Of a DNA stretch of 59,157 nt, positions 2,616 through 50,671 are shown in pieces (the first letter of the stretch is position 1; every line of letters starts with the position of its first letter). The notes beneath the pieces were generated by a model. That model was not told the origin of the DNA and searched no databases. It saw only the letters and a list, made by a program, of their open reading frames with translations. Location of the stretch: positions 1 through 59,157 of IMG/VR virus record IMGVR_UViG_3300036782_000077; one strand, given 5' to 3'. A program made the translations under genes and the position numbers. This stretch comes from a virus (lineage: Duplodnaviria; Caudoviricetes).

Positions 2616-2637
2616 TTGTGGATTCCATGTGGACTCT
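2616..2637 (+). repeat. integrase arm-type sites, left (TTGTGGATTCC ATGTGGACTCT)
   Basis: Tandem 11-mers; the second is identical to the tandem pair at 59095-59116. Confidence 0.75.
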
Positions 2638-3920
2638 CACCCCGCTACGGCCCGCAGCGTTCGAACGGGCTCCTCCTTCTCCTTCGGTGCCATCACCGCC
2701 AGGGCTCGGGACGCCACATCCTCCGGAGCGTGCTGATAGATCCACGTCACCTTCGACCCGCGGTCGTGCCCCATGATCGCCTGGACATCCTTCTCCGGGA
2801 TGCCCAAGTCCTTGAGCCACGTCGCGAACGTGTGCCTCAGATCATGCACCCGAGGCCACCACTCCGTCCGCTTCGTCTCCCGGTTCACCACTTCACGGGC
2901 AATGCCTGCGGCCTGGATCGCCGGGATCCACGTACGCCGGAAATTGTGCCGCGTGAGCACCCCGCCCTGCGGCCCGCGAAACACCAGCTCGCCTGGCACC
3001 AAGTCCCGCCCGTCGTCCTTGATGGCGGACACGGTCCGCTCCGGGTGCCACTGCGTGACCATCGTGCGGACGGCCTCCTGCGCGGCCGGCGTCAGCGGGA
3101 CGGTCCGGAATCCAGCCGCCGTCTTCGGCGCCTCCTGCCGGAACAAGGTGCCCTTGTCCTCACTGAGCACTTCCTTTACCTTCACGTGCTCAGCTTCCAG
3201 GTCCACGTGCCCCCACCGCAGGCCGGTTGCTTCGCCCCACCGCATGCCGGTCTCCTCCAGGAATACGAGCAGTGGCCGGTAGTACATGGCGCAGTGCTCG
3301 CGGATGAGGGTGCACTGCTCTTTGGTTGGCGGCCGGAGGTCGTCGGCGTGCTTCTTTGGGGGCGCCTCCAACTCGATGTCAGCGGCCGGGTTCACGGGGA
3401 TCCGCTGTCCGTCGAGCACTGCGCTGCGCAGCATCGCCCGCAACAGCTCCAGTACCTTGCGACGCGTGTGGTGGCCCTTCACTTCCTTCGTGATCCACTT
3501 CTGGAGTTGGATGTACTCCAGATCGCACAGTCGGTATTGGCCCCACTTCGGTTCGATGTGGTGCCGCCAGTTCGACAGCTTCCGGTTCACGGTGGTTGTG
3601 CGCCGTTCCGGCTGCGCTGGCCACCAGATGTCCCACCACTTGGCCAGCGTGATCTCGCCGCGTTTCGGATCGTTGTATGTGCGTCTGCGGACGCGGGTGC
3701 GGACGTCGTCGAGGAAGTCGTCGGCGCCCTTCTTCTTCTCGAAGTTCTTTGCTTTTTGGTTTCCGGCGGGGTCGCGGTACCGGGCTTGCCACGCGCCGAT
3801 GCAGTCGCGCCTGCGCTTGCGCTCGCCGTTTTCGGCGGGTGGGTAATGCTCCAAGCAGAGGCTGCATCCGCAACTCTTGCTGCGCATCTGTCGGGGATTG
3901 TTCGCTGCCCTACGCGCCAT
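2637..3920 (-). CDS. int: tyrosine integrase
   Basis: TGMRWGE (R), PKT (K), HDLRH, MGH and IYQH (Y) motifs; N-terminal WQARYRDP arm-binding domain; start placed at MARRAANN. Confidence 0.95.
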   Translation of the reverse strand: MARRAANNPRQMRSKSCGCSLCLEHYPPAENGERKRRRDCIGAWQARYRDPAGNQKAKNFEKKKGADDFLDDVRTRVRRRTYNDPKRGEITLAKWWDIWWPAQPERRTTTVNRKLSNWRHHIEPKWGQYRLCDLEYIQLQKWITKEVKGHHTRRKVLELLRAMLRSAVLDGQRIPVNPAADIELEAPPKKHADDLRPPTKEQCTLIREHCAMYYRPLLVFLEETGMRWGEATGLRWGHVDLEAEHVKVKEVLSEDKGTLFRQEAPKTAAGFRTVPLTPAAQEAVRTMVTQWHPERTVSAIKDDGRDLVPGELVFRGPQGGVLTRHNFRRTWIPAIQAAGIAREVVNRETKRTEWWPRVHDLRHTFATWLKDLGIPEKDVQAIMGHDRGSKVTWIYQHAPEDVASRALAVMAPKEKEEPVRTLRAVAG

Positions 3921-4155
3921 GCTGTACCACCTCTCTGCGTCGCTGCTGAGGCACTTGCGCGAGGAGGGTGATGGGTTCCCCGCAGAAACAGCGTGCACCG
4001 AAGACCGGCTGTGGTATGGCAAGTTCAGCGAGAATCGCCCGCACCACTTGAAGGGAAGACGCCTCGGTCAGGTGACGAGGCAGTGTGATCACCTTCTGCT
4101 GGTGATCCCACGGGACAGCAGGCAGGAACGGCGCGTACTGGACGCGGATGCACAT
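3910..4155 (-). CDS. small hypothetical protein coupled to int (CxCG motif)
   Basis: ATG preceded by GGGGGG; stop overlaps int start; ARCFCGEP motif. Confidence 0.6.
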   Translation of the reverse strand: MCIRVQYAPFLPAVPWDHQQKVITLPRHLTEASSLQVVRAILAELAIPQPVFGARCFCGEPITLLAQVPQQRRREVVQHGA

Positions 4156-6741: not shown

Positions 6742-7277
6742 ACGCCCGTACCGAGATCCTCGCCGCGCTCCAGCGCGCCGGCTACGACCAGCAGGGCTCC
6801 GAGTCCTTGCTCGGTCGAGCCGAGGTCGAGAGGCTGCGGGAGGCTCAGCGTGAGGTCGTCGCGTGGCTGGTCAAGAAGGCCGGCGAGTACCGGTCGACCG
6901 GCCGCCAGCAGCACCGGTTGCAGGCGGACGCCATTGGGACTCTCGCTTCGAAGGTGGACCGGGGCGCCGTCCGCCTCCTCGGCATGGGCCACTACCGGGA
7001 CGCCATGGATGAGCACCGCGCCGAGGTGCTGCGCGAGGCATCCGAGGTCTGCGTCCAGTGGGATTCCGACTGCACCCAGTGCGCGGTAGAGCTGGAGGTG
7101 GCGGGAGAACTGCGGCGCATGGCCGACGCCGCCGTGAAGGACACCCCCGCCGGGGGCGCGTCCACCCACGCCGCCGACCCGGCGTCGTACGGCCCGGACC
7201 GTTGCATGCACGGCGCCTCCATCACCGTCGAGTGCGGCGACTGCGACGCCCTCGGCCAGATCGGCGGCCCCGCATGA
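6738..7277 (+). CDS. hypothetical phage protein with Cys motifs
   Basis: ATGA overlaps; CxxC pairs in the C-terminal half. Confidence 0.6.
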   Translation: MNARTEILAALQRAGYDQQGSESLLGRAEVERLREAQREVVAWLVKKAGEYRSTGRQQHRLQADAIGTLASKVDRGAVRLLGMGHYRDAMDEHRAEVLREASEVCVQWDSDCTQCAVELEVAGELRRMADAAVKDTPAGGASTHAADPASYGPDRCMHGASITVECGDCDALGQIGGPA

Positions 7278-7468
7278 GCGACACGTTCGGCGACCGCTAC
7301 CACCGCCGTCGCACCGACGACGGCCGCGCCCGCACCCGCCGCGAGGCCCTCGACCGCGCGGCTTACGACCACAACACCGACCAGGCCCGCGACGGCGGCG
7401 GCTGCGCCGCTCCGCTCATGGTCCTCGCCACCACCATCGCCGCCATCTTGGGGGTGCTGCTCGGATGA
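7274..7468 (+). CDS. small protein with C-terminal TM helix
   Basis: MSDTFGDR...LMVLATTIAAILGVLLG; coupled overlaps. Confidence 0.6.
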   Translation: MSDTFGDRYHRRRTDDGRARTRREALDRAAYDHNTDQARDGGGCAAPLMVLATTIAAILGVLLG

Positions 7469-8382
7469 CGAACACCGTGCTGGCCGGAGCTCAGGCCCCG
7501 GCCGCCGGGCCGGTCACCCTCGGGTGGTTCGAGCCCGGTTCGGACGAGTGGCACGCGGCGCGGAAGGGCGGTATCGGCGGCTCGGAGATCGCCGCCGTCC
7601 TCGGCCTCTCCCCATTCGAGTCTCGCTTCTCCCTCTGGCACCGCAAGAAGGGGCTCGTCGCGCCGGTCGACGAGACCGACGCCATGTACTGGGGCACCGC
7701 CCTGGAGCCCGTCATCTGCGCCGAGTTCGCCCGCCGGCACCCCGAGTGGGACGTCCAGCCCGCGCCGACCTACGCGGCGGCCGACCGGGCGTGGCAGATC
7801 GCCAACCCGGACCGGCTCCTCCTCTCTGATGGTGGCCCCGGTGCGCTCCTGGAGGCGAAGACATCGAGGGACGACGTCGGCTGGGGCGAGGAGGGCAACG
7901 GCGAGATCCCGGTGTACTACCGGGCCCAGTGTCTGCACTACCTCGACGTCCTCGGCCTCGATCGGTGCCATGTCGCCGTGCTGATCGCCGGGTCGACCTA
8001 CCGGGAATACGTCGTCGAGTACGACCCCGTTGACGCGCTCCAGATGCGGGCGGCCGGCGCCGAGTTCATGCGCTCCCTCGCCGCTCGTGAACGGCCAGAG
8101 ATCGACGGGCACAGCGCCACCTACCAGACCGTCCGCGAGCTGCCCGAGGGCCTGGACGACGTCGACGTCGAGACCCCGACCCGGCTCCGCGACCGGTGGC
8201 ACGCCGCGCAGGACGCCTTCTGGGCCGCCGAGGACGAGCTGACCGCCTGCAAGGGCGAGTTGCTCGACGCGATCGGCGCCGGACGCCGCGCGGTCTGTGA
8301 GCGCGAGCGTGTCGCCACCCGCACCGTCCGCAACGGACGCACCTTTCAGCTTCTCCCCGCCCGTACTCGGAGGACCCGATGA
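7465..8382 (+). CDS. YqaJ-like (lambda Exo family) exonuclease
   Basis: WHAARKGGIGGSEIAAVLG, ANPDR, LEAKT, YYRAQC motifs. Confidence 0.92.
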   Translation: MTNTVLAGAQAPAAGPVTLGWFEPGSDEWHAARKGGIGGSEIAAVLGLSPFESRFSLWHRKKGLVAPVDETDAMYWGTALEPVICAEFARRHPEWDVQPAPTYAAADRAWQIANPDRLLLSDGGPGALLEAKTSRDDVGWGEEGNGEIPVYYRAQCLHYLDVLGLDRCHVAVLIAGSTYREYVVEYDPVDALQMRAAGAEFMRSLAARERPEIDGHSATYQTVRELPEGLDDVDVETPTRLRDRWHAAQDAFWAAEDELTACKGELLDAIGAGRRAVCERERVATRTVRNGRTFQLLPARTRRTR

Positions 8383-33530: not shown

Positions 33531-33545
33531 CGAGGAGGGGCAGTG

Positions 33546-35405
33546 ATGGCGTGGTGGAAGCTCCACAAGCGTGACAACGGCCGGGCCCCCGACGGCGCCG
33601 TCCTGGCCTCCGCCGCGCTCATCTCCAAAGACCAAGTCCGCACCGTCGTAGGAAAACGCGAGGACTGGCAGGCCGAGGGCTGGGACTTCTACCGCGCCGT
33701 GCCCGAACTGCGCGCCGGGGTCACGTGGGCCGCAAGCGGCTGCTCCCGCGCCCGCCTCTACGTCGGCCGCATCGACCCCGACGGCTCCAGCGCCCCCATC
33801 CCGGTCAACTCCGACGGCGACGACAACGCCACCCCCGAGCAGGCCGCCACGCTCCTCGCCCCACTGGAGGAACTGGCCGGCGGACAACTCGGACAGTCGG
33901 AGATGCTGCGCCGCCTCTCCGTCCTCCTCGACGTGCCTGGGGAGTCGTACCTCCTCGGCTACGACGACCCGGCATCTGGCGCGCGCCGGTGGCTGGTGTG
34001 CTCCCCAACGGAGATCACCAGCGCCGCCGGTGGCAGTGCGATCCGCGTGCAGCTCCCAGAGTCGCCGACAGCGCGGGTCGAGCTGGCACTGGAGGCGTGC
34101 ACGCTGCTGCGGCTGTGGCGGCCGGACGCCGAGGTTGCCCACCGCGCGGATTCGCCGATCCAGGCGCTGCGAGACCCACTTCGGGAGCTTCAGGGGCTGT
34201 CCGCTCACGTTCTGGCGACGGTCGAATCACGGCTGGCCGGGGCCGGGTTGATGCTGCTGTCCGATGACGTAGCCCCGGCGACGCCACAGCAGTCCGACGG
34301 CGTCAATCCGCTGCATGCGAACCCCGTAGCATCGGCGCTGCTGGAGTCGATGGCGACGCCGCTGAAGAACCGCGACTCGGCCGCCGCGATCGTCCCGCTG
34401 CTGCTCACCACCCCGGGTTCGCCGAAGGACAAGTTGGTCTATGAGACGTTCGCGACTGACCTCGACGCGAACGTCCTGCCGCTGCGCGAAGCCGCGATCA
34501 AGCGGGTCGCCACCGGGCTGGACATGCCGCCGGAGGTGCTGACCGGCTACGCGGACGCGAACCACTGGAACGCCTGGCTGAGCGACGAAACCGGCATCAA
34601 GCTCCACCTGGAGCCCAAGCTGGGGCTCATCGCCGAAGCCCTGACGGAAAGGTACTTCCGCCCGGCCTGGGCAGCTTTGGGTGTGCCCAACCCTGAGGCG
34701 TGGGCGTGCTGGTACGACACCAGCGACCTCCGCCAGCGGCCGAACCGGGCACCGGAGGCTGCCGAGGCGCACTCGCGCGGCGTGCTGAGCGATGCGGCGT
34801 ACCTGCGCGAGCTCGGCTTCTCCGGCGAGGACATGCCGGACGACGAGGAGCAGCAGCGCCGTCTCCTCTTCCAACTCGCCACCACCAACATGCAACTCGC
34901 GCCGGCAGCACTGGAGGCGCTTGGCGTGCGGCTCCCGGACAACATCCGGACGGCGACGGACACCGTCCGGACACCGCCCACGGTCTCCCGGGTGCCCGCC
35001 GAGCCAGAGATGCCCCGCAACGCTCCGCCGGAGCTGCCCGGCGTCACCGCGTCGGCCGCGGCTGCTGAGGAGTGGCGGATCTCCTGCCTCGACATGGCCG
35101 TCCGGCGCGCCCTGGAGCGGGCTGGACAGTGGCTCCTCAACCGCGGAGGGCGCAGCCTTCGCGGGCAGTTGCGCGAGGTTCCGCTCCACCAGATCCACGT
35201 CCGCCTCGGCGCCGAGCAGCAGCACCTGGATCAGATGCTCTCCGGCGCGTACCAACTGCTGCACGATGCCGTGCCCGACGAGCCGTGCCTCCATCGGGCG
35301 GTCGACCACTATGTCCGCGCGCTCCTCCTCGCGCGGGAGAAACACCACCGCGACTACCTCGCGCGTGCCCTCGCGCAGGCCGGCTGTAACGGACATGCCG
35401 CCTGA
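33546..35405 (+). CDS. portal protein
   Basis: WQAEGWDFY..VPELR, VPGESY, SRLAGAG, LDMPPEVL.G..ANHW; position after TerL. Confidence 0.85.
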   Translation: MAWWKLHKRDNGRAPDGAVLASAALISKDQVRTVVGKREDWQAEGWDFYRAVPELRAGVTWAASGCSRARLYVGRIDPDGSSAPIPVNSDGDDNATPEQAATLLAPLEELAGGQLGQSEMLRRLSVLLDVPGESYLLGYDDPASGARRWLVCSPTEITSAAGGSAIRVQLPESPTARVELALEACTLLRLWRPDAEVAHRADSPIQALRDPLRELQGLSAHVLATVESRLAGAGLMLLSDDVAPATPQQSDGVNPLHANPVASALLESMATPLKNRDSAAAIVPLLLTTPGSPKDKLVYETFATDLDANVLPLREAAIKRVATGLDMPPEVLTGYADANHWNAWLSDETGIKLHLEPKLGLIAEALTERYFRPAWAALGVPNPEAWACWYDTSDLRQRPNRAPEAAEAHSRGVLSDAAYLRELGFSGEDMPDDEEQQRRLLFQLATTNMQLAPAALEALGVRLPDNIRTATDTVRTPPTVSRVPAEPEMPRNAPPELPGVTASAAAAEEWRISCLDMAVRRALERAGQWLLNRGGRSLRGQLREVPLHQIHVRLGAEQQHLDQMLSGAYQLLHDAVPDEPCLHRAVDHYVRALLLAREKHHRDYLARALAQAGCNGHAA

Positions 35406-38106: not shown

Positions 38107-39882
38107 GTGAGCTTCCTTGATGACGTCCTCGCCAAGCTCGGCGAGGCCCCGGCCGACCAGCACGCGGACATCGTCCGCCAAGCCGTCACCGATGCCCGCC
38201 CCGACGCCGATGCCGCGGCCATCACTGCGGAAATCCTTCAGCGATTCGACGCGGCGGCGGACGGCGATGACCCGGCCGACGATTCGACTGTGGCTGTGCT
38301 GGAGCGGCTGGCAACCGTCGCCGACGTCGTCATCGAGCACCAGGCCGCCGTTGACGAACGCGCCCAGCGCGCCACCGCGGCCAGCGACCGCCTGCGCAGT
38401 CTCCAGACCCCGGCTGCCGAGGAGCCCGCCACCGCCCCTGAGCCCGAGGCACCGGCCGAGGCACCAGAGCCCACCGCCGAGCGCCCAGCCGCGCCGGAGC
38501 CGGTGGCCGCGTCCGCCCGTCCGCGCGTCCCACTCGGTCTGCACAGCACCACCCCTCCGACCCCGGCGGCTGACGCGGGCGGTCGTACGACCCACACCCT
38601 CGTCGCCGCCGCCGACGTGCCCGGCTACAGCACCGGCCAGCAGCTCGACGGGCTCGGCGACTTCGGCCGGGCGTGGGAGCAGCGGATGATGCCGCTGATC
38701 TCCTCCGGCGGCCGGGGTGGCGGCCGGCAGCGCGTCGGCGTTGCTCGGATTAAGCGCGACATCCCGCAGGAGTTCACCATCCGGGACGACCGCGAGGCCG
38801 ACGAGGTCATCAAGCGCGCGACGGACGAGACTCAGCTCTCTGGCGGCAGCCTCGTCGCGGCCGGCGGCTGGTGCGCCCCGTCGGAGACGCTGTACGACCT
38901 GTGCGACCTACGGATCACGCAGGACGGCATGGTCAACCTCCCTTCCGTCACGGCCAGGCGCGGCGGTGTCCGATACCCGGCCGACTTCGACTGGGCCAGC
39001 ATCTTCGGCGCCTGGGAGAACGTCGGCTTCCACCAGACCGAGGCCGACGCTATCGCGGGCAAGGAAAAGCCTTGCCAGGAAGTTCCCTGTCCGGACGACT
39101 TCATCGAGTGCCGCATGGACGTCGACGGCGTCTGTCTGCGAACTCCGATCCTGACCGAGCGCGGGTGGCCGGAGCGAGTAGCCCAGTTCACGGAGGGCGT
39201 CCTCGCGATCCACGCGCACAAGCTCAACGCGTGGAAGATCAAGAAGATGGAGTCGCTGTCGACTCCGGTCACGATGCCCGAGCCGGGCTCCCCGAACCCG
39301 CAGGCTACGGTCACCGACCCTCACGGGCCCGGCATGGTCGAGTCAGTGCTGTCGATGCTCGAACTCCAGGTGCAGTACCAGCGGTACCGCGAGCGGCTGT
39401 CGCAGAACGCAACGCTGGAGATGATCGCGCCATTCTGGCTGCGCGGCATCCTGAAAAGCGACCTCCGGAAGAAGCAGGCGATCGAGAGGCGCTGGTCGGT
39501 CCCGGACGGCGACATCGACACCTACCTCCGATCGGTCGGCGTCAACCCGCAGTGGGTCTACGACTGGCAGGACGCCTACGCGTCGCAGGATCCGGCGGGC
39601 TTCGGCGGTGCCACGGTCCCGACCGTGTGGCCGGGCGAGGTCAAGGTCCTGCTGTACCGGGCTGGTTCGTTCTTCCAGCTCCAGGCCGACGTGATCAGCC
39701 TCGATGGCGTCTACGACCACGCGAGCCTCACGCAGAACATGTACACGAGCCTCTTCACGGAGGAGGGCATCCAGGTGTGCATGCGCTGCGGCGCCTCCTA
39801 CGTAGTCACCATCCCGCTGTGCCCCAACGGCCTGAGCGGCGGATTCCAGGCAACGACCTGCGCCGCTCCCCCCGCTGGCTGA
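38107..39882 (+). CDS. major capsid (hexamer-type) protein with N-terminal scaffold-like region
   Basis: SLVAAGGWCAPSETLYD, RGGVRY, K.C.EVPCP, LFTEEG motifs. Confidence 0.88.
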   Translation: MSFLDDVLAKLGEAPADQHADIVRQAVTDARPDADAAAITAEILQRFDAAADGDDPADDSTVAVLERLATVADVVIEHQAAVDERAQRATAASDRLRSLQTPAAEEPATAPEPEAPAEAPEPTAERPAAPEPVAASARPRVPLGLHSTTPPTPAADAGGRTTHTLVAAADVPGYSTGQQLDGLGDFGRAWEQRMMPLISSGGRGGGRQRVGVARIKRDIPQEFTIRDDREADEVIKRATDETQLSGGSLVAAGGWCAPSETLYDLCDLRITQDGMVNLPSVTARRGGVRYPADFDWASIFGAWENVGFHQTEADAIAGKEKPCQEVPCPDDFIECRMDVDGVCLRTPILTERGWPERVAQFTEGVLAIHAHKLNAWKIKKMESLSTPVTMPEPGSPNPQATVTDPHGPGMVESVLSMLELQVQYQRYRERLSQNATLEMIAPFWLRGILKSDLRKKQAIERRWSVPDGDIDTYLRSVGVNPQWVYDWQDAYASQDPAGFGGATVPTVWPGEVKVLLYRAGSFFQLQADVISLDGVYDHASLTQNMYTSLFTEEGIQVCMRCGASYVVTIPLCPNGLSGGFQATTCAAPPAG

Positions 39883-39979: not shown

Positions 39980-40819
39980 ATGACTACCCCAATCCCTCCT
40001 CGCGGGGCGCGATCGGAGGTCGATCCGCCCGCGATCGAGCCGTACGCCTTCGGCCTGCTGTCCGCTGCGCAGGTTGTGACCGGTGATGGTCGGTGGCAGG
40101 CCGGCGGCGTCGAGTATCCGACGGATGCGTGTGCGCAGGGCGGGTACGTCCTCGGCGCGTGCCCGGTGCCCGGGGAGGACGGTACAACCAGCCACGACAA
40201 GCCGATCACCGGTGCTCCGGAGTGGCTGGACGGCTCCGGCCCGTTCACGGTGTACTCCCGCACCGAGTGCTCGTCCGTCGGGTTCACCACGGCGTCCGCG
40301 ACGGCATTGGCCCGGCTGCGGTACGTGGAGCCGCGCGAGGTCGAGCGGGCGTTCTCCGAGCAGGTCCTTGGTGTGAGCGTCCCGCGACTGCCGGTCGGCT
40401 CGGAGCCCGTGCCGCTGCTGGTGGCGCTGGGGGCCCTGGAGCAGGACGCCGCTCTGCACTACGCCGGACAGTCGGTGCTGCATGCTCCTCGGTGGACTCA
40501 GCCGTGGTGGACGCGGGATCGGCTCGTCTCCCAGCAGGGGCCGGTGCTCCGTACGGAGTTGGAGTCCGTCGTCGTGCCTGGCGGCGGGTACTACGACGTG
40601 CCGTCGGCTCCGGCCGATCCGGCCCCAGCGAGCGGGCGCTTCTGGCTGTACGCCACGGGCTCCGTACGGGCGTTCAGGAGCGAGCCGTTCGTCCACGAGG
40701 CGTTCGACCCGCCGACCAACACCCGGATCGCCATCGCGGAGCGGACGTACGCGCTGGATCACGACTGTTACGTGGCCGCCGTCCTGGTGTCCCTGAACGG
40801 TGCCGGGGGTGCCGCCTGA
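39980..40819 (+). CDS. second capsid (pentamer-type / minor) protein
   Basis: P..FGLLSAA, W..G, PF.VY...C, V.PGGGY, AER.Y; follows the hexamer-type gene. Confidence 0.65.
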   Translation: MTTPIPPRGARSEVDPPAIEPYAFGLLSAAQVVTGDGRWQAGGVEYPTDACAQGGYVLGACPVPGEDGTTSHDKPITGAPEWLDGSGPFTVYSRTECSSVGFTTASATALARLRYVEPREVERAFSEQVLGVSVPRLPVGSEPVPLLVALGALEQDAALHYAGQSVLHAPRWTQPWWTRDRLVSQQGPVLRTELESVVVPGGGYYDVPSAPADPAPASGRFWLYATGSVRAFRSEPFVHEAFDPPTNTRIAIAERTYALDHDCYVAAVLVSLNGAGGAA

Positions 40820-41094
40820 TGGCGACCTACTACCCCGAGGCAGAAGAGACGCTGCACGCCCTCGTGCGGCGCATCCTGCCCGGTCTGACCCCCGAGGTGA
40901 GGGCTCGGGTGCGGGTGGTGACGGGCGGTGAGCGTGCTGGGCTGGTGGTCCCCGGGCACGCCACCCCCGTCGCCGTGACGCCCGCCGTTCGACCGCCCCG
41001 CAGCGAACCGCCGGCCCCCGCGCCGGAACCCGACGAACCTCAGCTCGCCGCTCGCCGCCCGCGGCGTCGCACCACCACGAAGGAGACGACCTGA
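40819..41094 (+). CDS. hypothetical protein
   Basis: TGATG coupling at both ends. Confidence 0.6.
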   Translation: MATYYPEAEETLHALVRRILPGLTPEVRARVRVVTGGERAGLVVPGHATPVAVTPAVRPPRSEPPAPAPEPDEPQLAARRPRRRTTTKETT

Positions 41095-42497
41095 TGGCCT
41101 GCCCCTCCCTACTGCGCGGCGTGGTGCTGCGCGCGACCCGACTGGACGCCTGTGGGCGGCCGATGTACGGCGACTGCAACCAGGTCGTCAGCGACGGTTT
41201 CGTCACCGTAAAAATGAGCGCGGAGACCGAGAAGGGCGAGGACATCTCGGTCACCAAGGCAAACGGGCAGACGTGCGTCGCTGAGTCCGGCTGCGAGCAA
41301 CTGAGCCACTACACGACCGAGATCGAGTTCTGCGAGGTCGACCCCGACCTCGTGCAGATCATGAACCCCAGCTTCGAGATCTACCGTGACCCCGACGGGA
41401 ATCCGATCGGCTGGGACGACTCAGTCGAGCTGCGCTGTGACACCGGCTACGCGCTGGAGGTCTGGAGCAACGTCTATGCCGGAGCGTCCGACGCGTGCTC
41501 CGGGGCCGGGTCGCAGGGGCAGTGGGGGTATCTGCTGCTGCCGTGGGTGGTCGGCGGCGCGCCGGGTGACCTGGAGATCGGCAACGACGCCGTGAGCTTC
41601 ACCTTCAACGGGCGCACCAAGGTGGGGAGCGGCTGGCGGAAGGGCCCGTACAACGTCCAGGCCGGGCCAGGCGGCATCCCGGCGCCGATGCTCAAGCCGA
41701 TCGGGCCGAAGACCCCGCGCAGGTTCTTCGTGACAACGATCCGGCCGCCAGAGGCGGAGTGCGGCTGCCAGCCGGTGGACCGGCCGACGCCGGACCCGGC
41801 GGACCTGTACATCACAGGCATCGCCAACGAGTCGCCTCGCAGGACCACGCGCTTCCGGGCGGACAACCACGGATTCGGTCCCGTCACGGTCGACTTCGGC
41901 GACAGCTCGCAGCCGCAGGAGGTCGCCGACGGTGCGTGGGTCACCCACGTCTACACCGGCGACGGCGAGCACACGATCAAGGCGTGCGACAAGGGGACAC
42001 CGGTCATCTGCGCCGAGCGGCCGGTGATGATCCCGCTGCCGGCCGACGAGCCGATCCTTGAGCTGGCGACGAAGAACCCGGCTAGCCCCTACGAGGTGAC
42101 GGCCGTCGTTGGCCTGCCGTCGCAGTCCGACGGCACCGCCACGATCGACTGGGGCGACGGAACGGCTCTGGAGCAGATCACCGTCGGCGCGGACGGCACG
42201 GTGTCCGTCCTCCACGTCTACAGCGTCCCGTCCGTCTACACGGTGATGGTGCGCCGCGGCGACATCGACACGTACCGCACCCGTGAGGCCATCCTCGTGC
42301 CCGGCCAGGGCGAGGGCGGTACACCGCCGCAGGTAGCCGCCGCTCCGGACCCGTCGGACGCTTCCGGCCGTACGGCGCTCCTGCACATCGACAACGCGGC
42401 CATGCCCGCTGACGCCCCTGAGGCGACTGCCGCCCCGGACCCGGCTGACCCGTCCGGCAAGACGGTGCAACTCGCTGTCGACAACACCACGGACTGA
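41094..42497 (+). CDS. major tail protein with C-terminal PKD-like domains
   Basis: RG...RATRLDACG, V..ANG..C, FC.VDP, W.KGPYNV; VDFGD and IDWGDG PKD motifs. Confidence 0.8.
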   Translation: MACPSLLRGVVLRATRLDACGRPMYGDCNQVVSDGFVTVKMSAETEKGEDISVTKANGQTCVAESGCEQLSHYTTEIEFCEVDPDLVQIMNPSFEIYRDPDGNPIGWDDSVELRCDTGYALEVWSNVYAGASDACSGAGSQGQWGYLLLPWVVGGAPGDLEIGNDAVSFTFNGRTKVGSGWRKGPYNVQAGPGGIPAPMLKPIGPKTPRRFFVTTIRPPEAECGCQPVDRPTPDPADLYITGIANESPRRTTRFRADNHGFGPVTVDFGDSSQPQEVADGAWVTHVYTGDGEHTIKACDKGTPVICAERPVMIPLPADEPILELATKNPASPYEVTAVVGLPSQSDGTATIDWGDGTALEQITVGADGTVSVLHVYSVPSVYTVMVRRGDIDTYRTREAILVPGQGEGGTPPQVAAAPDPSDASGRTALLHIDNAAMPADAPEATAAPDPADPSGKTVQLAVDNTTD

Positions 42498-42506
42498 GAG
42501 AGGACC

Positions 42507-43772
42507 ATGACCATGGCAGGACCCACCACGATCGACTGGGGCGACGGCTCGGCGCCGGAGGACGGGCCCGAGAAGGGCGATGTGTCCCACAAGTACACGA
42601 GCGACGGTCCGAAGACGATCGTCGTCACGGACACCGCTGACCCGAGCAAGAAGACCGAGATCGAGGTCACGATCCCCCTCGGCGGGACCCCGAAGGCTAC
42701 TGCGGTAGCCGACCCGGCCGACGCCGCCGGTCGAACGGCGAAGGTGACGTGGTCGGGGTTCCCGGCCGGTACCGTCTCGGTCGGCTGGGGCGATGGCACC
42801 CCGCCGCAGACTGGCCAGCCCGCGGCGGGGACGCTTTCTCATGCCTATGCGGCTGAGGTCGCGGACGAGCAGACCATCACCGTCACCAGCGAGGCCAACG
42901 GTACGAAGAAGGCCACCGCGGTGTTCACGCCGGCCGATCCGGTCCCGGATCCGAGCGTGACTGTGGAGGCGGACCCCGGCGACGCGACTGGGCGAACAGC
43001 GGCCATCACCCTGGCCAACTTCCCCGCTGACAGCGCGGTCTCCGTGAACTGGGGCGACAGCTCCGCAGCGGAGACTGTCCCGGCCGGGACGACGGCCGCG
43101 AAGCATGCCTACGCGGCGGGAGTTGAAGGCGAGCAGACCATCACCGCCACCTCGGCGACGGACGCCTCGCAGGCTGCGACCGCGAAGTTCACGCCGACGC
43201 CGGGCGCGCCTGCTCCGGAGCCGTCCCTCACCGCCACCGCGGACGAGGGCGACGCTGCTGGCCGCACGGTCGCCATTACGCTCGCCGGCTTCCCTGCCGA
43301 CGGCGCGGTGAACGTCGCTTGGGGCGACGGCTCCGCGGCCGAGGAGGTCCCCGCGGGGACGGCCACGGCCAGCCACGCGTACGTGGCTGGTGTGGAGGGT
43401 GAGCAGACGATCACGGCGACATCGGCGACAGACGAGACCAAGAAGGCAACGGCGAAGTTCACCCCGAAGCCGGCCGCTGAGCCGTCGGTGACTGCCGAGC
43501 CTGACGCCTCCGACACAACCGGGCACACCGCCACGATCGCGCTGGCCGGGTTCCCGGCCGACTCGGCGGTGTCGGTGAACTGGGGCGACGGTACGGCCGC
43601 CGAGGAGATCGCGGCGGGGACGACCACCGGCAAGCACGCGTACGCCGCCGAGGTGACCACGGAGCAGACCATCACCGCGGCCTCGGCGGGGGACGCGGCG
43701 AAGACCGCCAGCGCAAAGTTCACCCCGGGCGCCGCCGCGGCACCGGCCACGGTGGCGCGCAAGAAGAAGTAG
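42507..43772 (+). CDS. PKD/Ig-like repeat protein (five WGD repeats, first truncated)
   Basis: Tandem repeats of about 85 aa: P.VT..D..D..GRT...FP...V.WGD...H.Y....TIT. Confidence 0.8.
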   Translation: MTMAGPTTIDWGDGSAPEDGPEKGDVSHKYTSDGPKTIVVTDTADPSKKTEIEVTIPLGGTPKATAVADPADAAGRTAKVTWSGFPAGTVSVGWGDGTPPQTGQPAAGTLSHAYAAEVADEQTITVTSEANGTKKATAVFTPADPVPDPSVTVEADPGDATGRTAAITLANFPADSAVSVNWGDSSAAETVPAGTTAAKHAYAAGVEGEQTITATSATDASQAATAKFTPTPGAPAPEPSLTATADEGDAAGRTVAITLAGFPADGAVNVAWGDGSAAEEVPAGTATASHAYVAGVEGEQTITATSATDETKKATAKFTPKPAAEPSVTAEPDASDTTGHTATIALAGFPADSAVSVNWGDGTAAEEIAAGTTTGKHAYAAEVTTEQTITAASAGDAAKTASAKFTPGAAAAPATVARKKK

Positions 43773-43830: not shown

Positions 43831-44664
43831 GTGCCGGACGAGGTGCTGGACGGGCCGTGCGGCCCGTGGCCGCTCGATGCGTCGTGCTGCCCCGGGTGGC
43901 CAGAGGACCCAGCCGAGTGGTCCCCGGGGCAGCGGGCAGCGGCGGAGATCGCGACGGACGTGCTGTGGCGGCTGACGGCCGGGCAGTACGGGCCGTGCGA
44001 GGAGGTGATCCGGCCGTGCCGACAGGGGTGTGACGAGTCGTCGCCGACGGCTGGCACGGGGTCTCCTCTCCGGCCAGTGCTCGACGGCGGGCGCTGGTAC
44101 AACCGCCCGTGCGGCTGCGGCCCTGCGGGTTGCTCGTGCGTGCCGCTGTGCGTAATCGACCTGCCGGGCCCGGTGCACGAGGTCCTGGAGGTGAAGCAGG
44201 ACGGACAGGTCGTGGACGCGTCCGGATACGTCCTGCACCGGACGTCGTCCGGCGGCCGTCTCATCCGGACAGATGGGGAGTGCTGGCCCGACTGCCAGCG
44301 GCTGGACCGTCCGGACAGCGAGCCGGACACCCTGTCCGTCCGGTATCTCCGCGGCCTGGACGTGCCCGCCGCCGGCCGCCGCGCCGCCGGGCAACTCGCC
44401 TGCGAGATCGACAAGCTGTGCACCGGCGCGCCGGGCGGCTGCGCCCTGCCGACGGGCACGAAGAGCGTGACCCGCGAGGGAGTGACGTACGAGGTCGTGC
44501 CGCCCGGGTCGTGGCCGGAGACGCTGGAGGCGCACCTCCCGCAGGCGTGGGCGTGGGTGCAGCTCGTCAACCCGGCCCGCGTCCGGCAGTTCGGCGCTGT
44601 CTTCAGCCTCGACCTGCCGCCCGCGCCGCCCGCGGTTCGCTACCGGCCGGGGGTGGCGCCGTGA
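43831..44664 (+). CDS. head-to-tail adaptor
   Basis: AT.VLW.LT..QYG.C...RP, WP.CQ, LACEI.K.C, C.LP, VTREGV. Confidence 0.7.
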   Translation: MPDEVLDGPCGPWPLDASCCPGWPEDPAEWSPGQRAAAEIATDVLWRLTAGQYGPCEEVIRPCRQGCDESSPTAGTGSPLRPVLDGGRWYNRPCGCGPAGCSCVPLCVIDLPGPVHEVLEVKQDGQVVDASGYVLHRTSSGGRLIRTDGECWPDCQRLDRPDSEPDTLSVRYLRGLDVPAAGRRAAGQLACEIDKLCTGAPGGCALPTGTKSVTREGVTYEVVPPGSWPETLEAHLPQAWAWVQLVNPARVRQFGAVFSLDLPPAPPAVRYRPGVAP

Positions 44665-47206: not shown

Positions 47207-50200
47207 ATGCCGCAGGTCGGCCGTACCTCCGTCCAGATCACGTCGGACACCGCCGCATACGCCGCCCAGCTCCGCGCCGAGCTTGCTCGCGCCGGCCGCG
47301 ACGCCGGGCAGACCCTCGACGACGCTGTCCAGCGGGCTGTCCGTGCCACCGGAGACCGCGCCAGCCGCCAGATCGGCCGCGACATCCAACGAGCCCTGCG
47401 GACCGTGCGCGCACAGGTCCGCGTCGAGCCGGACCTATCTCGGTTCGAGGCGCAGGTCCGTCGGCAGCTCCGTAGCCTGACCGCCAGCGTGCGGGTCGTG
47501 GCGGACGTCGCCGGGTTCCGGCAGTCTCTTGCTGGTGAGCTGCGCGGCCTGCCACCGGTACAGGTTCGGGTCACTCCAGACATGGCTCGGTTCCGGGCCG
47601 AGATCGCTCGCGAACTCCGGGCTCTGCCCTCGGTGGCTGTCGCGGTTCGCCCGGACTCCAGCCAATTCCGCCGCTTGCTCCAAGTCGAGTTGCGGAATCT
47701 GGATGCCGTGCGAGTGCCGGTCGCCCCGGACACGGCACGGCTCCGTGCCGACCTCCGGCGGGCTGCACGCGACGTTGCAGCGACCGTCCGCGTGGAGCCG
47801 GACGTTCAGCGGCTCCGGCGCGAGCTGGCGCAAGCCACGCGCGGCATCACGGTTGCTGTACACCTCCGGCCTGACGCGGTTCGGCTGCGGGCGGAGCTGG
47901 CCCGGCTGCGGCTGTCGGCGATCACTGTGCCGATCCACGCGGATCCTGCTGGGATGAGTCGTCTCGGTTCCATGAGTGGCCAGGCCGCAGGCGGACTGGA
48001 TCGGCTGGGGTCCAGCGCGGCCTCGGCGGAGGGCGGCCTCCTGTCTCTGGGGCGAGTGCTGGTTGCCCTCGGGCCGAGCGTTGCAGCATTCGCCAGCCAA
48101 CTCGTTCCGGCCGTCGGCATCATCGCGGCTACGCCCACTACGGTCCTCGGCCTCGTGGCCGCTTTCGGCACGCTCAAGGTCGCCCTCAGCGGCGTCGGCG
48201 AAGCGTTCGGCGCGGCCCTCGGTCCCGACACGAAGAAGTTCAACGAGGCCCTGGAGGAGCTTTCTCCCAAGGCACGTTCAGTTGCCCGCGAGCTGCATGT
48301 TCTTCAGCCCGCCTTCGACCGGTTAAAGAGCAGCGTTCAGGATGCCTTCTTCGGGCAGCTCGCCGGTGACATCACCAAGACGGCCTCCGCGCTGAGTCCG
48401 CTGCGGTCGGCGATGGCTGGGGTTGCTGCGGGGTGGGGACGGATCGCCTCGGCGTCGCTCACCGCCGTACGGGCGCAGTCGTCGCTGGCTGGGCTCGGGA
48501 ACGTATTCGCCGCAGTGCGGAGCATGCTCAACGCGCTCGCCCCGGCGGTGCAGCGGCTCCTCCAAGGCTTCATCGCGATGGGCGGGGCCGTCGCGCAGGC
48601 TTTCGGCGGCCGGGCGGCGACGGCGATGGCCAACCTCACGGCCCGCTTCGGTGACTTCATGGCGCGGGCGGCGCAGTCGGGGCAGGCGGTGGCCTGGGTG
48701 CAGGGTGCTGTCACGGTGTTCCGCCAGCTCGGCGCGGTTCTCGCCCCGCTCGGCGGCATCATCGGCGACGTCTTCGGTGCCCTGGCCGCCGGCGGTGGCG
48801 GCGTTCTGGGGGCGCTCGGGCCGGCGCTTCAGAGTCTGCGGACGCTGATCCAGCCGCTCCTGCCGGACATCACGCAGCTCGCAGCACTGATCCAGACGGT
48901 GCTGGGCACGGCTATCCAGGTGTTCGCGGCGGCGCTTCAGCCGCTGATCGAGGCCCTGTCGGGCGGCCTCCAGCAGGTCTTGCCGGCCATCTCGCAGGCG
49001 TTCACGCAGCTGGGGGCGGCACTCCAGCCGGTAGCTCGGCAGCTTGGGCAGACCCTGGGCACAGCCGTCCGAGCGCTGGTACCGGTGATGACGGCGCTGG
49101 CCCCCGTGCTGGCCACCGTGGGGCGGCTTTTCGGCGCGGTGCTCGGCGCGGCCCTCCGGATCGTGACGCCGCTGCTCCGGCCTCTCGGACAGATCATCTC
49201 CAGCGTCCTGGACGCGATCAACCCGCTTATCCCTGTATTGACCCAATTCGCCATGATGCTGGGCACGCAGCTCGGCAGCATGGTCAGTGGGCTCGTCCCG
49301 GTCTTCCGGGCACTGGCCGGCGTGGTCGTGCAGGTGATGAATGCACTGGTGCCGCTGGTGAATCAGGCATTGGCGGCACTCATGCCGGTACTGCCGCCCA
49401 TCGTCAGCGGCTTCAATCAGATGGTGGCCGCGATCGTGCCGGTCATCCCGCCGCTCGGCGACATGCTGGTCAGCATTACGCCGCTGCTGTCGACTCTCAT
49501 TCAGCTCGTCGCGCCGGTCCTCAGGGTCGCCGCGGCGTTCGCTGGATGGGCGCAGATCAATCTGGTCGTGCCGGTTGTCACGAAGATCGCGAGCGTCATC
49601 GCATCCGTGATCGGCTGGATTGCGAAATTCCAAGCGGCTGTGGCCTCGATGCCAGGAAAGGTCGTTTCCGCCGTCTCGTCGTTGGGGCCCAGGGTCGGCG
49701 GCTTCTTCACGTCGCTTTGGCAAAGCATCACATCAGGCGTCTCGTCGGCGGTCTCCTCGGTTGTCGGTTTCTTCACTGCTCTACCTGGACGGATCGTCGC
49801 AGCGCTCCAGGCACTGCCGAGGATGCTGTATGACGCATTCACCTCGGCGGTCGCTGGCCTCGGGATCGTCGTCTTGAGCGCGCTGGCGGGCGTCATCTAC
49901 GTATTCACGGAACTGCCGGGGAAGATCGTCTCTGCGCTGGGGAGTCTGGGCAGCACGATCGGTTCGTTCTTCAGCAGCGCGTTCCGGTCGGCGCTGTCCG
50001 CCGTCTCGTCGTTCATTTCCTCTGTCGGCTCCTTCTTCGCCTCACTCCCCGGCCGTATCGGCTCCGCGCTGGCCGCGTTGCCCGGCCGGGTTTCTGCCCT
50101 ATTCCGCTCGGCCGGCTCCGCTGCCCTGAGCGCGGCTCAGTCGCTGGGGTCGTCGGTTGTCGGCTTCTTCGCTTCCCTGCCAGGCCGGATTGGCTCTGCG

Positions 50201-50671
50201 CTCGCCTCGGTTGGGTCCCGGATCGCCGGCGCCTTCAGTCGAGCGTGGGGCGCTGCCCGGTCGGCGGTCGGTTCGTTGATCTCGAACGTGGTGAGCCTTT
50301 TCTCGTCGCTCCCGGGCCGGATCGCGTCGGCCTTGGGCTCCATCGGTTCGACGATCGTCAGCAAGATCAAGAGTGGCCTCCCGTCGGCTGTGCGCGATCT
50401 GCTCCCCTTCGCCGACGGCGGCGTCGTCCGTGTGGCGACTCCCGCTCTCATCGGCGAGGCTGGGCCCGAGGTCGTCATCCCGCTGACGCGTCCGCGGCGC
50501 GCTGCCGAGCTGGCGCAGCAGTCTGGGCTGCTGGATCTGCTCGCGCGGCAGGGCGCCGGCGGCGGGGGCACGCACATCACGAACAACTGGACCATCCAGT
50601 CGCGCATGTCGGATCCCATGGTGCTTGCGCAGCACCTCCAGGGACAGATCGCCCGAGCGGCGGGGGTGTAG
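47207..50671 (+). CDS. tape measure protein
   Basis: 1154 aa Ala/Leu-rich with LPGRI repeats; FADGG...GEAGPEVVIPL; TTA at 48323. Confidence 0.93.
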   Translation: MPQVGRTSVQITSDTAAYAAQLRAELARAGRDAGQTLDDAVQRAVRATGDRASRQIGRDIQRALRTVRAQVRVEPDLSRFEAQVRRQLRSLTASVRVVADVAGFRQSLAGELRGLPPVQVRVTPDMARFRAEIARELRALPSVAVAVRPDSSQFRRLLQVELRNLDAVRVPVAPDTARLRADLRRAARDVAATVRVEPDVQRLRRELAQATRGITVAVHLRPDAVRLRAELARLRLSAITVPIHADPAGMSRLGSMSGQAAGGLDRLGSSAASAEGGLLSLGRVLVALGPSVAAFASQLVPAVGIIAATPTTVLGLVAAFGTLKVALSGVGEAFGAALGPDTKKFNEALEELSPKARSVARELHVLQPAFDRLKSSVQDAFFGQLAGDITKTASALSPLRSAMAGVAAGWGRIASASLTAVRAQSSLAGLGNVFAAVRSMLNALAPAVQRLLQGFIAMGGAVAQAFGGRAATAMANLTARFGDFMARAAQSGQAVAWVQGAVTVFRQLGAVLAPLGGIIGDVFGALAAGGGGVLGALGPALQSLRTLIQPLLPDITQLAALIQTVLGTAIQVFAAALQPLIEALSGGLQQVLPAISQAFTQLGAALQPVARQLGQTLGTAVRALVPVMTALAPVLATVGRLFGAVLGAALRIVTPLLRPLGQIISSVLDAINPLIPVLTQFAMMLGTQLGSMVSGLVPVFRALAGVVVQVMNALVPLVNQALAALMPVLPPIVSGFNQMVAAIVPVIPPLGDMLVSITPLLSTLIQLVAPVLRVAAAFAGWAQINLVVPVVTKIASVIASVIGWIAKFQAAVASMPGKVVSAVSSLGPRVGGFFTSLWQSITSGVSSAVSSVVGFFTALPGRIVAALQALPRMLYDAFTSAVAGLGIVVLSALAGVIYVFTELPGKIVSALGSLGSTIGSFFSSAFRSALSAVSSFISSVGSFFASLPGRIGSALAALPGRVSALFRSAGSAALSAAQSLGSSVVGFFASLPGRIGSALASVGSRIAGAFSRAWGAARSAVGSLISNVVSLFSSLPGRIASALGSIGSTIVSKIKSGLPSAVRDLLPFADGGVVRVATPALIGEAGPEVVIPLTRPRRAAELAQQSGLLDLLARQGAGGGGTHITNNWTIQSRMSDPMVLAQHLQGQIARAAGV

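Follow-up and report, generated by a model that had tools for sequence, protein, structure and literature searches.

The subject of this study was a PKD domain divided between two genes in the tail region of a viral contig (IMG/VR record IMGVR_UViG_3300036782_000077), which was analyzed over its full 59,157 bp (69% G+C) and is called the window here. The first gene encoded a major tail protein (MTP) ending in two short beta-hairpins, each equivalent to strands A and B of a PKD domain, and the second encoded a chain of immunoglobulin-like (Ig-like) domains, here the Ig-chain protein, whose first PKD domain began without those two strands. Comparison of relatives and structure prediction suggested that the Ig chain may well dock on the MTP by fold complementation, with the hairpin as a tag and the incomplete domain as a catcher. 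The features of the locus, all on the plus strand, were as follows.

41094..42497, plus: MTP gene, 467 aa; aa 1-373 match phrog_792 'major tail protein' (E 6.2e-97)
aa 1 to ~238 of the MTP: N-terminal tube domain
41808..42299, plus: two complete PKD-like domains of the MTP, ~aa 239-313 and 321-402, delimited from AlphaFold2 (AF2) strands
42324..42395, plus: orphan A-B hairpin 1, aa 411-434, ending SGRTALLHIDN
42414..42485, plus: orphan A-B hairpin 2, aa 441-464, ending SGKTVQLAVDN, 3 residues before the stop
42495..42506, plus: TGA stop (42495-42497), Shine-Dalgarno sequence GAGAGGA (42498-42504) and spacer, the would-be B-C loop of the split domain
42507..43772, plus: Ig-chain protein gene, 421 aa from ATG 42507, likelier 419 aa from ATG 42513
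42507..42680, plus: N-terminal half-domain (catcher), PKD strands C to G without A-B
42690..43754, plus: four complete Ig-like units of the GFPADxAVSVxWGD type, starting near 42690, 42951, 43221 and 43482
43755..43769, plus: basic C-terminal tail, ARKKK

When the MTP was used as a tblastn query, 861 actinophage records were matched, nearly all of the matches listed being annotated as major tail protein, and the tube domain was ~30-40% identical to the major tail proteins of Mycobacterium, Gordonia, Microbacterium, and Arthrobacter phages. The tube domain gave no PDB sequence or profile match, an NCBIfam search returned only PamR matches far below the cut-off, and the AF2 model of aa 1-248 had a predicted local distance difference test score (pLDDT) of ~25-47, too low to show a tube fold. 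The two complete PKD-like domains were better defined in the model of the MTP alone, with block means of 60-80 for domain 1 and 83-91 for domain 2. Their Pfam scores in the window were both below threshold (PKD 22.3 bits, cut-off 23.5; PKD_4 20.1 bits, cut-off 27); the homologous units of a fused relative (L004), which align with those of the window, passed clearly (PKD_4 73.5, PKD 67.5). In the tube domain (41094-41780), cysteines C20, C28, C135, C223, and C225 were invariant and C3 nearly so across 15 MTPs, extending to distant tube-only proteins that end in PPEAECGCQ. Tube proteins do not usually have such a set, which may represent disulfides or a metal site.

The first-pass annotation of this DNA, made from the sequence alone, had held that the tail protein ends in two orphan copies of a PKD opening segment, and both copies were located at aa 411-434 and 441-464. 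Neither was followed by strands C to G. Hairpin 2 aligned with strands A-B of the intact PKD units of fused relatives (alignment A7), strand B of the orphans kept its core-facing hydrophobic positions, and hairpin 1 was kept in all five MTPs that carry two hairpins. A free hairpin with such a core pattern in strand B would make sense only if packed into the incomplete sandwich of a partner.

Such a partner may be encoded immediately downstream. The ATG at 42507 was in frame with the MTP, its A lying 12 nt beyond the T of the stop, and a second in-frame ATG followed at 42513; the Shine-Dalgarno spacing was 2 nt for the former and 8 nt for the latter. The second ATG is the likelier start, giving a 419-aa product, as its spacing was 8 nt and the database relatives P0002-P0005 begin with MAGPTTIDWGDG; P0002 is itself 419 aa long and 100% identical over the first 62 residues. 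The earlier claim that the genes are in frame and that the second has its own GAGAGGA ribosome-binding site therefore held, with a corrected start. The Ig-chain protein opened directly at the 'GP-TTIDWGDG' strand. Read in one frame, 41094-43772 contained seven PKD-like units anchored by WGDG or FGDS, two in the MTP, one across the stop, and four downstream. G+C content at third codon positions (GC3) was 0.82-0.96 throughout this frame, and both open reading frames (ORFs) are therefore coding.

The same annotation had described the first repeat of the Ig-chain protein as lacking only the opening segment of its sister repeats. It was indeed truncated at the C strand, but it belonged to a different subtype from the four later units. 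The truncated unit ('...DN xxx GP x(T/S)IxWGDG') corresponded to the third PKD unit that is intact in fused relatives, and the orphan hairpins carried the 'DN' ending of that subtype.

The basic tail occurred in every complete Ig-chain protein of the GFPAD type seen (e.g., L005, L006, L053, P0002-P0010, P0015, P0019, P0021, and P0115), in the variants RKKK, KRKRK, RGARKRR, SRRTRRSR, and RKSAK, and the fused MTPs of L003 and L014 ended in one too. P0108 and P0049 were without it. The tail may contact anionic wall polymers.

Conservation of the cut in split and fused relatives

Viral contigs scanned with the MTP yielded 12 loci, six of them close (59-77% identity) and six distant, with a tube-only MTP of ~227 aa. 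Among the close loci, L005 and L006 were split like the window, and L002, L003, L004, and L007 were fused. When metagenomes were scanned with the half-domain alignment, 29 loci were recovered, and six of them (L051-L056) were examined for the split: L051 was the same DNA as L005, L052 and L053 were further split loci, L054 and L055 were fused, and L056 held a different carrier protein that is treated below. The fused forms were of two kinds. In L002, L004, L007, and L055, an intact third PKD unit was fused where the window has hairpin, stop, and half-domain. In L003, a GFPAD-type unit with a basic tail was fused to the MTP, and L014, found with the repeat protein, carried three GFPAD-type units and a basic tail on an MTP of 681 aa in total.

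The distinct split loci thus numbered five: the window, L006, L005, L052, and L053. In all five the MTP ended 0-3 residues past '(I/V)DN', the second gene started M-x-(x)-GP/GQ-x-(T/S)-I-(D/N)-WGDG, and a Shine-Dalgarno-like site lay 6-8 nt before the ATG. The junctions are given below, with distances counted from the first base of the stop to the ATG; the spacers proper were 9-86 nt.

Window: TGA, 12 nt, frame 0
L006: TGA, 15 nt, frame 0
L005: TGA, 19 nt, frame +1
L052: TGA, 19 nt, frame +1
L053: TAA, 89 nt, frame +2

The MTP of L053 had an intact third PKD unit followed by one orphan hairpin. Its 86-nt spacer (L053:1639-1724) contained a 17-bp G+C-rich stem-loop with no U-tract (z -3.76, with -48.1 kcal/mol for the 101 nt that were folded), which may be a partial terminator or a stabilizer lowering expression of the Ig chain relative to the MTP.

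The same cut was found among database proteins. A half-domain start was present in all six matches among proteins of similar length and in five of six among longer proteins, the sixth (P0011) being a different protein; the 12 shorter profile matches that were fetched comprised six half-domain starts, four later starts, one fragment of a fused MTP, and one unrelated protein. In total, 14 distinct database proteins started at this cut. One contig encoded both an MTP with two terminal orphans (P0008) and an Ig-chain protein (P0004). Alignment A7 crosses the stop, and in it the N of 'DN' was invariant and 'GP' nearly invariant. When the A7 profile, which represents the intact junction domain, was run against 1.84 billion representatives, 22,368 matches were obtained at E <= 0.001, mostly giant multi-PKD proteins; among the best 150 of these, P0007, P0010, and P0108 matched from residue 2 at profile position 32 of 88, the first 31 profile positions (strands A-B) being missing. 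A half-domain scan of genome contigs gave 35 generic PKD matches in unrelated bacteria and archaea.

Four of the database proteins (P0036, P0048, P0058, and P0065) started after the WGDG motif (M..D..LPxxGTxxHxYAQxGxYTV), all at one point. This suggests a second conserved cut point, although miscalled starts are also possible; context scans for these proteins either came back empty or found no locus but the fused MTPs L080 and L081, and such a scan for P0019 yielded nothing useful.

The first-pass annotation had allowed that the stop could be a recent lesion or a sequencing error if all close homologues were fused genes. They were not: the survey gave five distinct split loci with no conserved frame. 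A contig from an independent sequencing run spanned 42200-42800 with 17 substitutions and no indels, and of the 14 differences listed for it none fell in 42494-42515, the nearest being at 42493. A sequencing or assembly error and a recent nonsense lesion were both excluded by the four further split loci together with this contig. Nor was the arrangement a chance pattern, as it recurred in four further loci and 14 database proteins.

Neither half contained frameshifts or internal stops. The ratio of nonsynonymous to synonymous change (dN/dS) by NG86, a rough measure that is unreliable at this GC3 bias, was 0.19-0.58 for the hairpin tail in six of six pairs and 0.13-0.76 for the half-domain in eight of 10 pairs. 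In a tree of the shared N-terminal 345 MTP residues, split and fused forms were interleaved in one unresolved clade, with fused forms (L007 and L004) as the basal rows; this tree neither shows nor excludes a single origin of the split.

Predicted structure of the composite domain

The read-through form of the junction, in which the TGA was read as W (P0001), was folded by AF2 with a 30-row alignment. That alignment (A5) included 14 genome-contig matches and nine metagenome loci used only as PKD rows. The model had a mean pLDDT of 87.1. Hairpin 1 formed strands at residues 11-16 and 26-31 (pLDDT 83-86), hairpin 2 formed strands at 41-46 and 55-61 (pLDDT 92-94), and the half-domain contributed five strands (pLDDT 85-97), with the stop-bearing loop between them at 69. 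Hairpin 2 and the half-domain together thus made up seven strands, equal to the next complete unit, as the first complete GFPAD-type unit was itself predicted as a seven-strand sandwich (pLDDT 91-97). In the model of the MTP alone, made with a different and shallower alignment, the hairpin region reached only 50-60. Foldseek searches with the read-through model returned tandem Ig/PKD/FN3 ectodomains over ~200 columns, with SorCS2 at the top, and Pfam PKD_4 spanned the junction in one stretch (residues 38-117, profile positions 2-76 of 85) at a score weighed in the next section.

The first-pass annotation had proposed co-folding the two ends, and this was done 1:1 in ESMFold2 with the pieces as separate chains (MTP aa 403-467 and Ig-chain aa 1-62, with a five-row alignment each). 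The three runs gave an ipSAE of 0.52, 0.51, and 0.52, the best of three controls giving 0.00, and the tool returned the verdict 'weak support'. The runs shared at least 86% of their contacts, and the pLDDT of the partner was at least 74, against 54 when an unrelated protein replaced the MTP tail. In calibration, solved complexes reached the mark in 58 of 80 cases and mismatched pairs in two of 110, and an ipSAE of 0.60 or less occurred in only seven of those 80 and in both passing mismatches; these counts are approximate here, since our own alignments were used.

Proposed docking by strand complementation and its alternatives

On this comparative and predictive basis, we consider it fairly probable that the Ig chain docks non-covalently on the MTP by two-strand fold complementation, as a tag-and-catcher pair. 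The MTP and the Ig-chain protein would be translated separately, after which the C-terminal A-B hairpin of the MTP (the tag) would insert into the strand-deficient first PKD domain of the Ig chain (the catcher, strands C-G), and the two would rebuild the complete seven-strand beta-sandwich that the models predicted. By this mechanism every tube subunit would anchor an Ig chain, covering the tail with chains that each comprise four to seven Ig-like domains and end in a basic tip. Most likely, such chains would give weak, multivalent adhesion to the host envelope, a function suggested by analogy with the Ig domains fused to the tube protein of mycobacteriophage Douge. The presence of the Ig chain in virions, the use of one or both hairpins, and the adhesion role are what we infer from these data. 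The gain from splitting could lie in copy-number control, in the order of assembly, or in one decoration serving several carriers. A covalent (isopeptide) lock was also considered and found no support; the Lys in the conserved 'PEKG' motif is replaced by Thr in P0004 and by Thr or Ala in the fused A7 units.

Several points weigh against docking by complementation. PKD_4 scored 17.9 bits on the read-through form, below its cut-off of 27. The co-fold score lay in the weak band, in which the tool's guidance expects a pairing to be wrong more often than right unless it was already likely on other grounds, and it may partly reflect prior exposure of the model to the PKD fold or to solved hairpin joints. 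The read-through AF2 model is biased toward a complete domain, being of a single covalent chain and with intact PKD rows of A5 lying over hairpin 2, and the contrast in hairpin confidence with the model of the MTP alone also reflects the different, shallower alignment of the latter. Two half-domain pairs, both involving L053, had rough NG86 dN/dS values of 0.98 and 1.71. The 467-aa product is a tube protein by PHROG and GenBank annotation only. Finally, docking gives hairpin 1 no distinct role, L053 carries only one orphan, and either hairpin of the window may be the active tag. The proposal of docking in trans that had been made from the sequence alone was partly supported and is the best-supported reading, given the conserved split with independent translation signals, the fused relatives, which amount to a Rosetta-stone argument, and the composite fold, with the pairing itself predicted and its co-fold weak.

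The Ig-like extension of SPP1 gp17.1* is added to the tail protein by programmed frameshifting. Adding such extensions by recoding is a known theme (Fraser et al. 2006, as cited in PMC13033339), and recoding at the junction described here, by UGA readthrough or a frameshift, would join both genes such that some subunits carry the Ig chain covalently. In favor of this, the second gene followed the TGA in frame in the window (after 12 nt) and in L006 (after 15 nt), and the read-through product would be a complete PKD domain with merely a longer B-C loop. However, an in-frame arrangement at two of five split loci, with +1 at two and +2 at one, is the chance expectation, and L053 combined a TAA stop with an 86-nt spacer and a 17-bp stem-loop. 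Each split locus had its own Shine-Dalgarno site and ATG, the spacer at L056 was 133 nt with frame +1, and the window encoded no tRNA gene and hence no suppressor tRNA. The window junction was less structured than its shuffles (z +1.97; 199 of 200 shuffles folded at least as well). No conserved frame relation and no stable junction structure were found in the test for recoding, in which slippery sequences were not searched for. Readthrough, which the first-pass annotation had offered as the other way of attaching the chain to the tail, is thus not supported as the conserved mechanism, given the varied frames, the TGA and TAA stops, the 9-86 nt spacers, and the separate Shine-Dalgarno sites, and recoding of any kind appears most improbable.

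A second alternative is that the split is a functionless remnant of unequal recombination among the repeats, with the first unit folding without A-B or being disordered and the protein reaching the virion by another route or never. PKD repeats are recombinogenic, fused and split forms were interleaved on the MTP tree, and some of the dN/dS values were near or above 1. A remnant would nevertheless not account easily for a cut point kept across MTPs that are only 59-77% identical, kept with a different MTP C-terminus in L053 and on a different carrier in L056, with termini that leave just 0-3 and 1-4 residues at the loop. Moreover, other proteins carried orphans as stand-alone modules flanked by Gly-rich linkers, and the predictions improved in the presence of the counterpart, from a hairpin pLDDT of 50-60 to 83-94 with the half-domain, the partner standing at 75 rather than 54. 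We regard this explanation as unlikely. Inter-subunit strand exchange is common in tail tubes, and the hairpins could instead act within the tube, by beta-augmentation between MTP neighbors or with their own PKD domains, while the half-domain is completed otherwise. This idea fits the confident prediction of hairpin 1 (pLDDT 83-86), which, unlike hairpin 2, the composite domain does not require. Fused relatives without such hairpins share the tube domain and both PKD domains, though, the hairpins co-occurred with a downstream half-domain gene at five MTP loci and at L056, and they were of low confidence in the model of the MTP alone, so that a role confined to the tube seems very doubtful.

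Other carriers, precedents, and phage context

Orphan hairpins were not confined to MTPs, and 14 of them were counted in nine proteins. At L005, an ORF at 6883-8241, between the Ig-chain gene and the head-tail adaptor, had a weak FN3 match and a C-terminal domain of the phrog_9468/12150 type, and near 7735 it contained an isolated hairpin between Gly/Asp/Asn-rich linkers that was almost identical to hairpin 1 of the same phage's MTP. The window had no counterpart of this ORF. The database protein P0011, whose N-terminal region and FN3-like part resembled the L005 ORF by eye, had two complete units followed by an isolated hairpin between Gly-rich linkers. At L056:3-2135, a fibre-like protein of at least 710 aa with an open 5' end, TTDVHGIPDT repeats, and a phrog_9468/12150 C-terminal domain ended in an orphan A-B hairpin (TGA at 2133); 133 nt later, in frame +1, a gene running from 2269 onward started as a half-domain (MTDVTIDWGDG...). 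Wherever DNA context was available, that is, at the five MTP loci and at L056, the hairpins were accompanied by a downstream half-domain gene.

The hairpin and the half-PKD domain could thus form a portable tag-and-catcher, by which any virion protein bearing the tag recruits the Ig chain, its carriers being the tube protein, with two tags per subunit, and the fibre-like proteins of the phrog_9468/12150 type. We put this forward tentatively, as a generalization with somewhat less than an even chance of being right; a possible second cut point after WGDG would turn it into a general means of assembling modular virion surfaces in actinophages. As a portable system, splitting would allow decorations to be swapped and their copy number to be set independently of the tube gene.

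Joints of a related kind are known from bacterial surfaces and from phage. In chaperone-usher pili (Fim, Pap, and Caf1), an incomplete Ig-like fold is completed by one or more strands of another polypeptide. Pilins lack a single C-terminal G strand, which an N-terminal extension supplies with the help of a chaperone and an usher, whereas here the N-terminal strands A-B were missing and the hairpin came from the C-terminus of the partner, with no polymerization. No chaperone or usher genes were involved either, the neighbors being phage head, neck, and tail genes. Covalent solutions are also established, as lambda gpV and T5 pb6 carry Ig-like domains on the tail-tube protein itself. The closest precedent is that of lactococcal phage Tuc2009, for which PMC4742702 describes a crystal structure in which a 25-residue C-terminal beta-hairpin of BppU completes the C-terminal sheet of BppA, giving a titin-like (Ig) composite. 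As proposed for the split locus, a C-terminal hairpin of ~25 residues completes the small beta-sandwich of an accessory protein non-covalently, and BppA carries carbohydrate-binding capacity. A free donor hairpin of ~25 residues and an acceptor without exactly those strands were both found here, and the complete composite Ig-like fold was predicted.

The likeness to Tuc2009 is one of architecture. The donor here is the major tail (tube) protein, so that the whole tail would be coated, and a multi-Ig chain provides the acceptor in its N-terminal PKD domain; the tag comes in two copies and is present on other proteins too, and the same domain is found unsplit in close relatives. In view of Tuc2009, the suggestion in the first-pass annotation that this might be an undescribed way of decorating a virion fails. 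A joint in which a hairpin completes an Ig fold was already known, and what is new here is that the donor is the tube protein, that the tag is both duplicated and portable, and that fused and split relatives form a series. In literature listings and the openings of abstracts, no account was found of a major tail protein linked to a separate decoration protein through a split Ig/PKD domain; the Samy prophage paper deals with a PhiC31-like phage and has no bearing on the joint. For mycobacteriophage Douge, Ig-like domains of the tail tube protein are reported to bind glycans of the host and to label its surface (PMC13033339). That covalent layout, with Ig-like domains facing outward on the tube, is the one seen in L003, L014, L002, L004, and L007. 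By contrast with covalent or frameshifted Ig extensions, the Ig chain of the split loci is encoded by a gene of its own, which has a dedicated ribosome-binding site and no conserved frame.

Beyond the split domain, the window encoded a Neck1-type protein, minor tail proteins, an endolysin, and the following genes.

2637-4022, minus: integrase
33543-35405: portal
38107-39882: major head protein, 591 aa (phrog_777)
39980-40819: conserved gene of unknown function (phrog_779, E 2.5e-61)
43831-44664: head-tail adaptor
47207-50671: tape measure protein, 1154 aa

With an integrase and genes for portal, head, neck, tail, tape measure, and endolysin, the window is that of a temperate siphophage. The phrog_779 gene sat between the major head and major tail genes; in the cluster B phage Rosebush, a capsid decoration protein has been proposed (PMC7150772). 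No tRNA genes were found in the window. Streptomyces genomes supplied the nearest database proteins. In 50,697 phage records, the Ig-chain protein gave zero tblastn matches and blastn of the locus gave three weak matches only, and no close cultured relative was therefore found among those records.

If the joint is real, this siphophage can coat its whole tube with long Ig chains without enlarging the tube gene, and the fused and split forms among close relatives make a clean evolutionary series. The 24-residue tag and the ~58-residue catcher would then be a ready pair for testing complementation. For annotation it would mean that a gene which follows a structural gene and opens in the middle of a domain need be neither a pseudogene nor a miscalled start. 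The joint could also provide natural non-covalent tag/catcher parts for protein display on phage particles, and the occurrence of the tag on unrelated carriers would suggest a modular code for attachment to the virion, bearing on how adsorption is tuned in phages of Gram-positive, high-G+C hosts.

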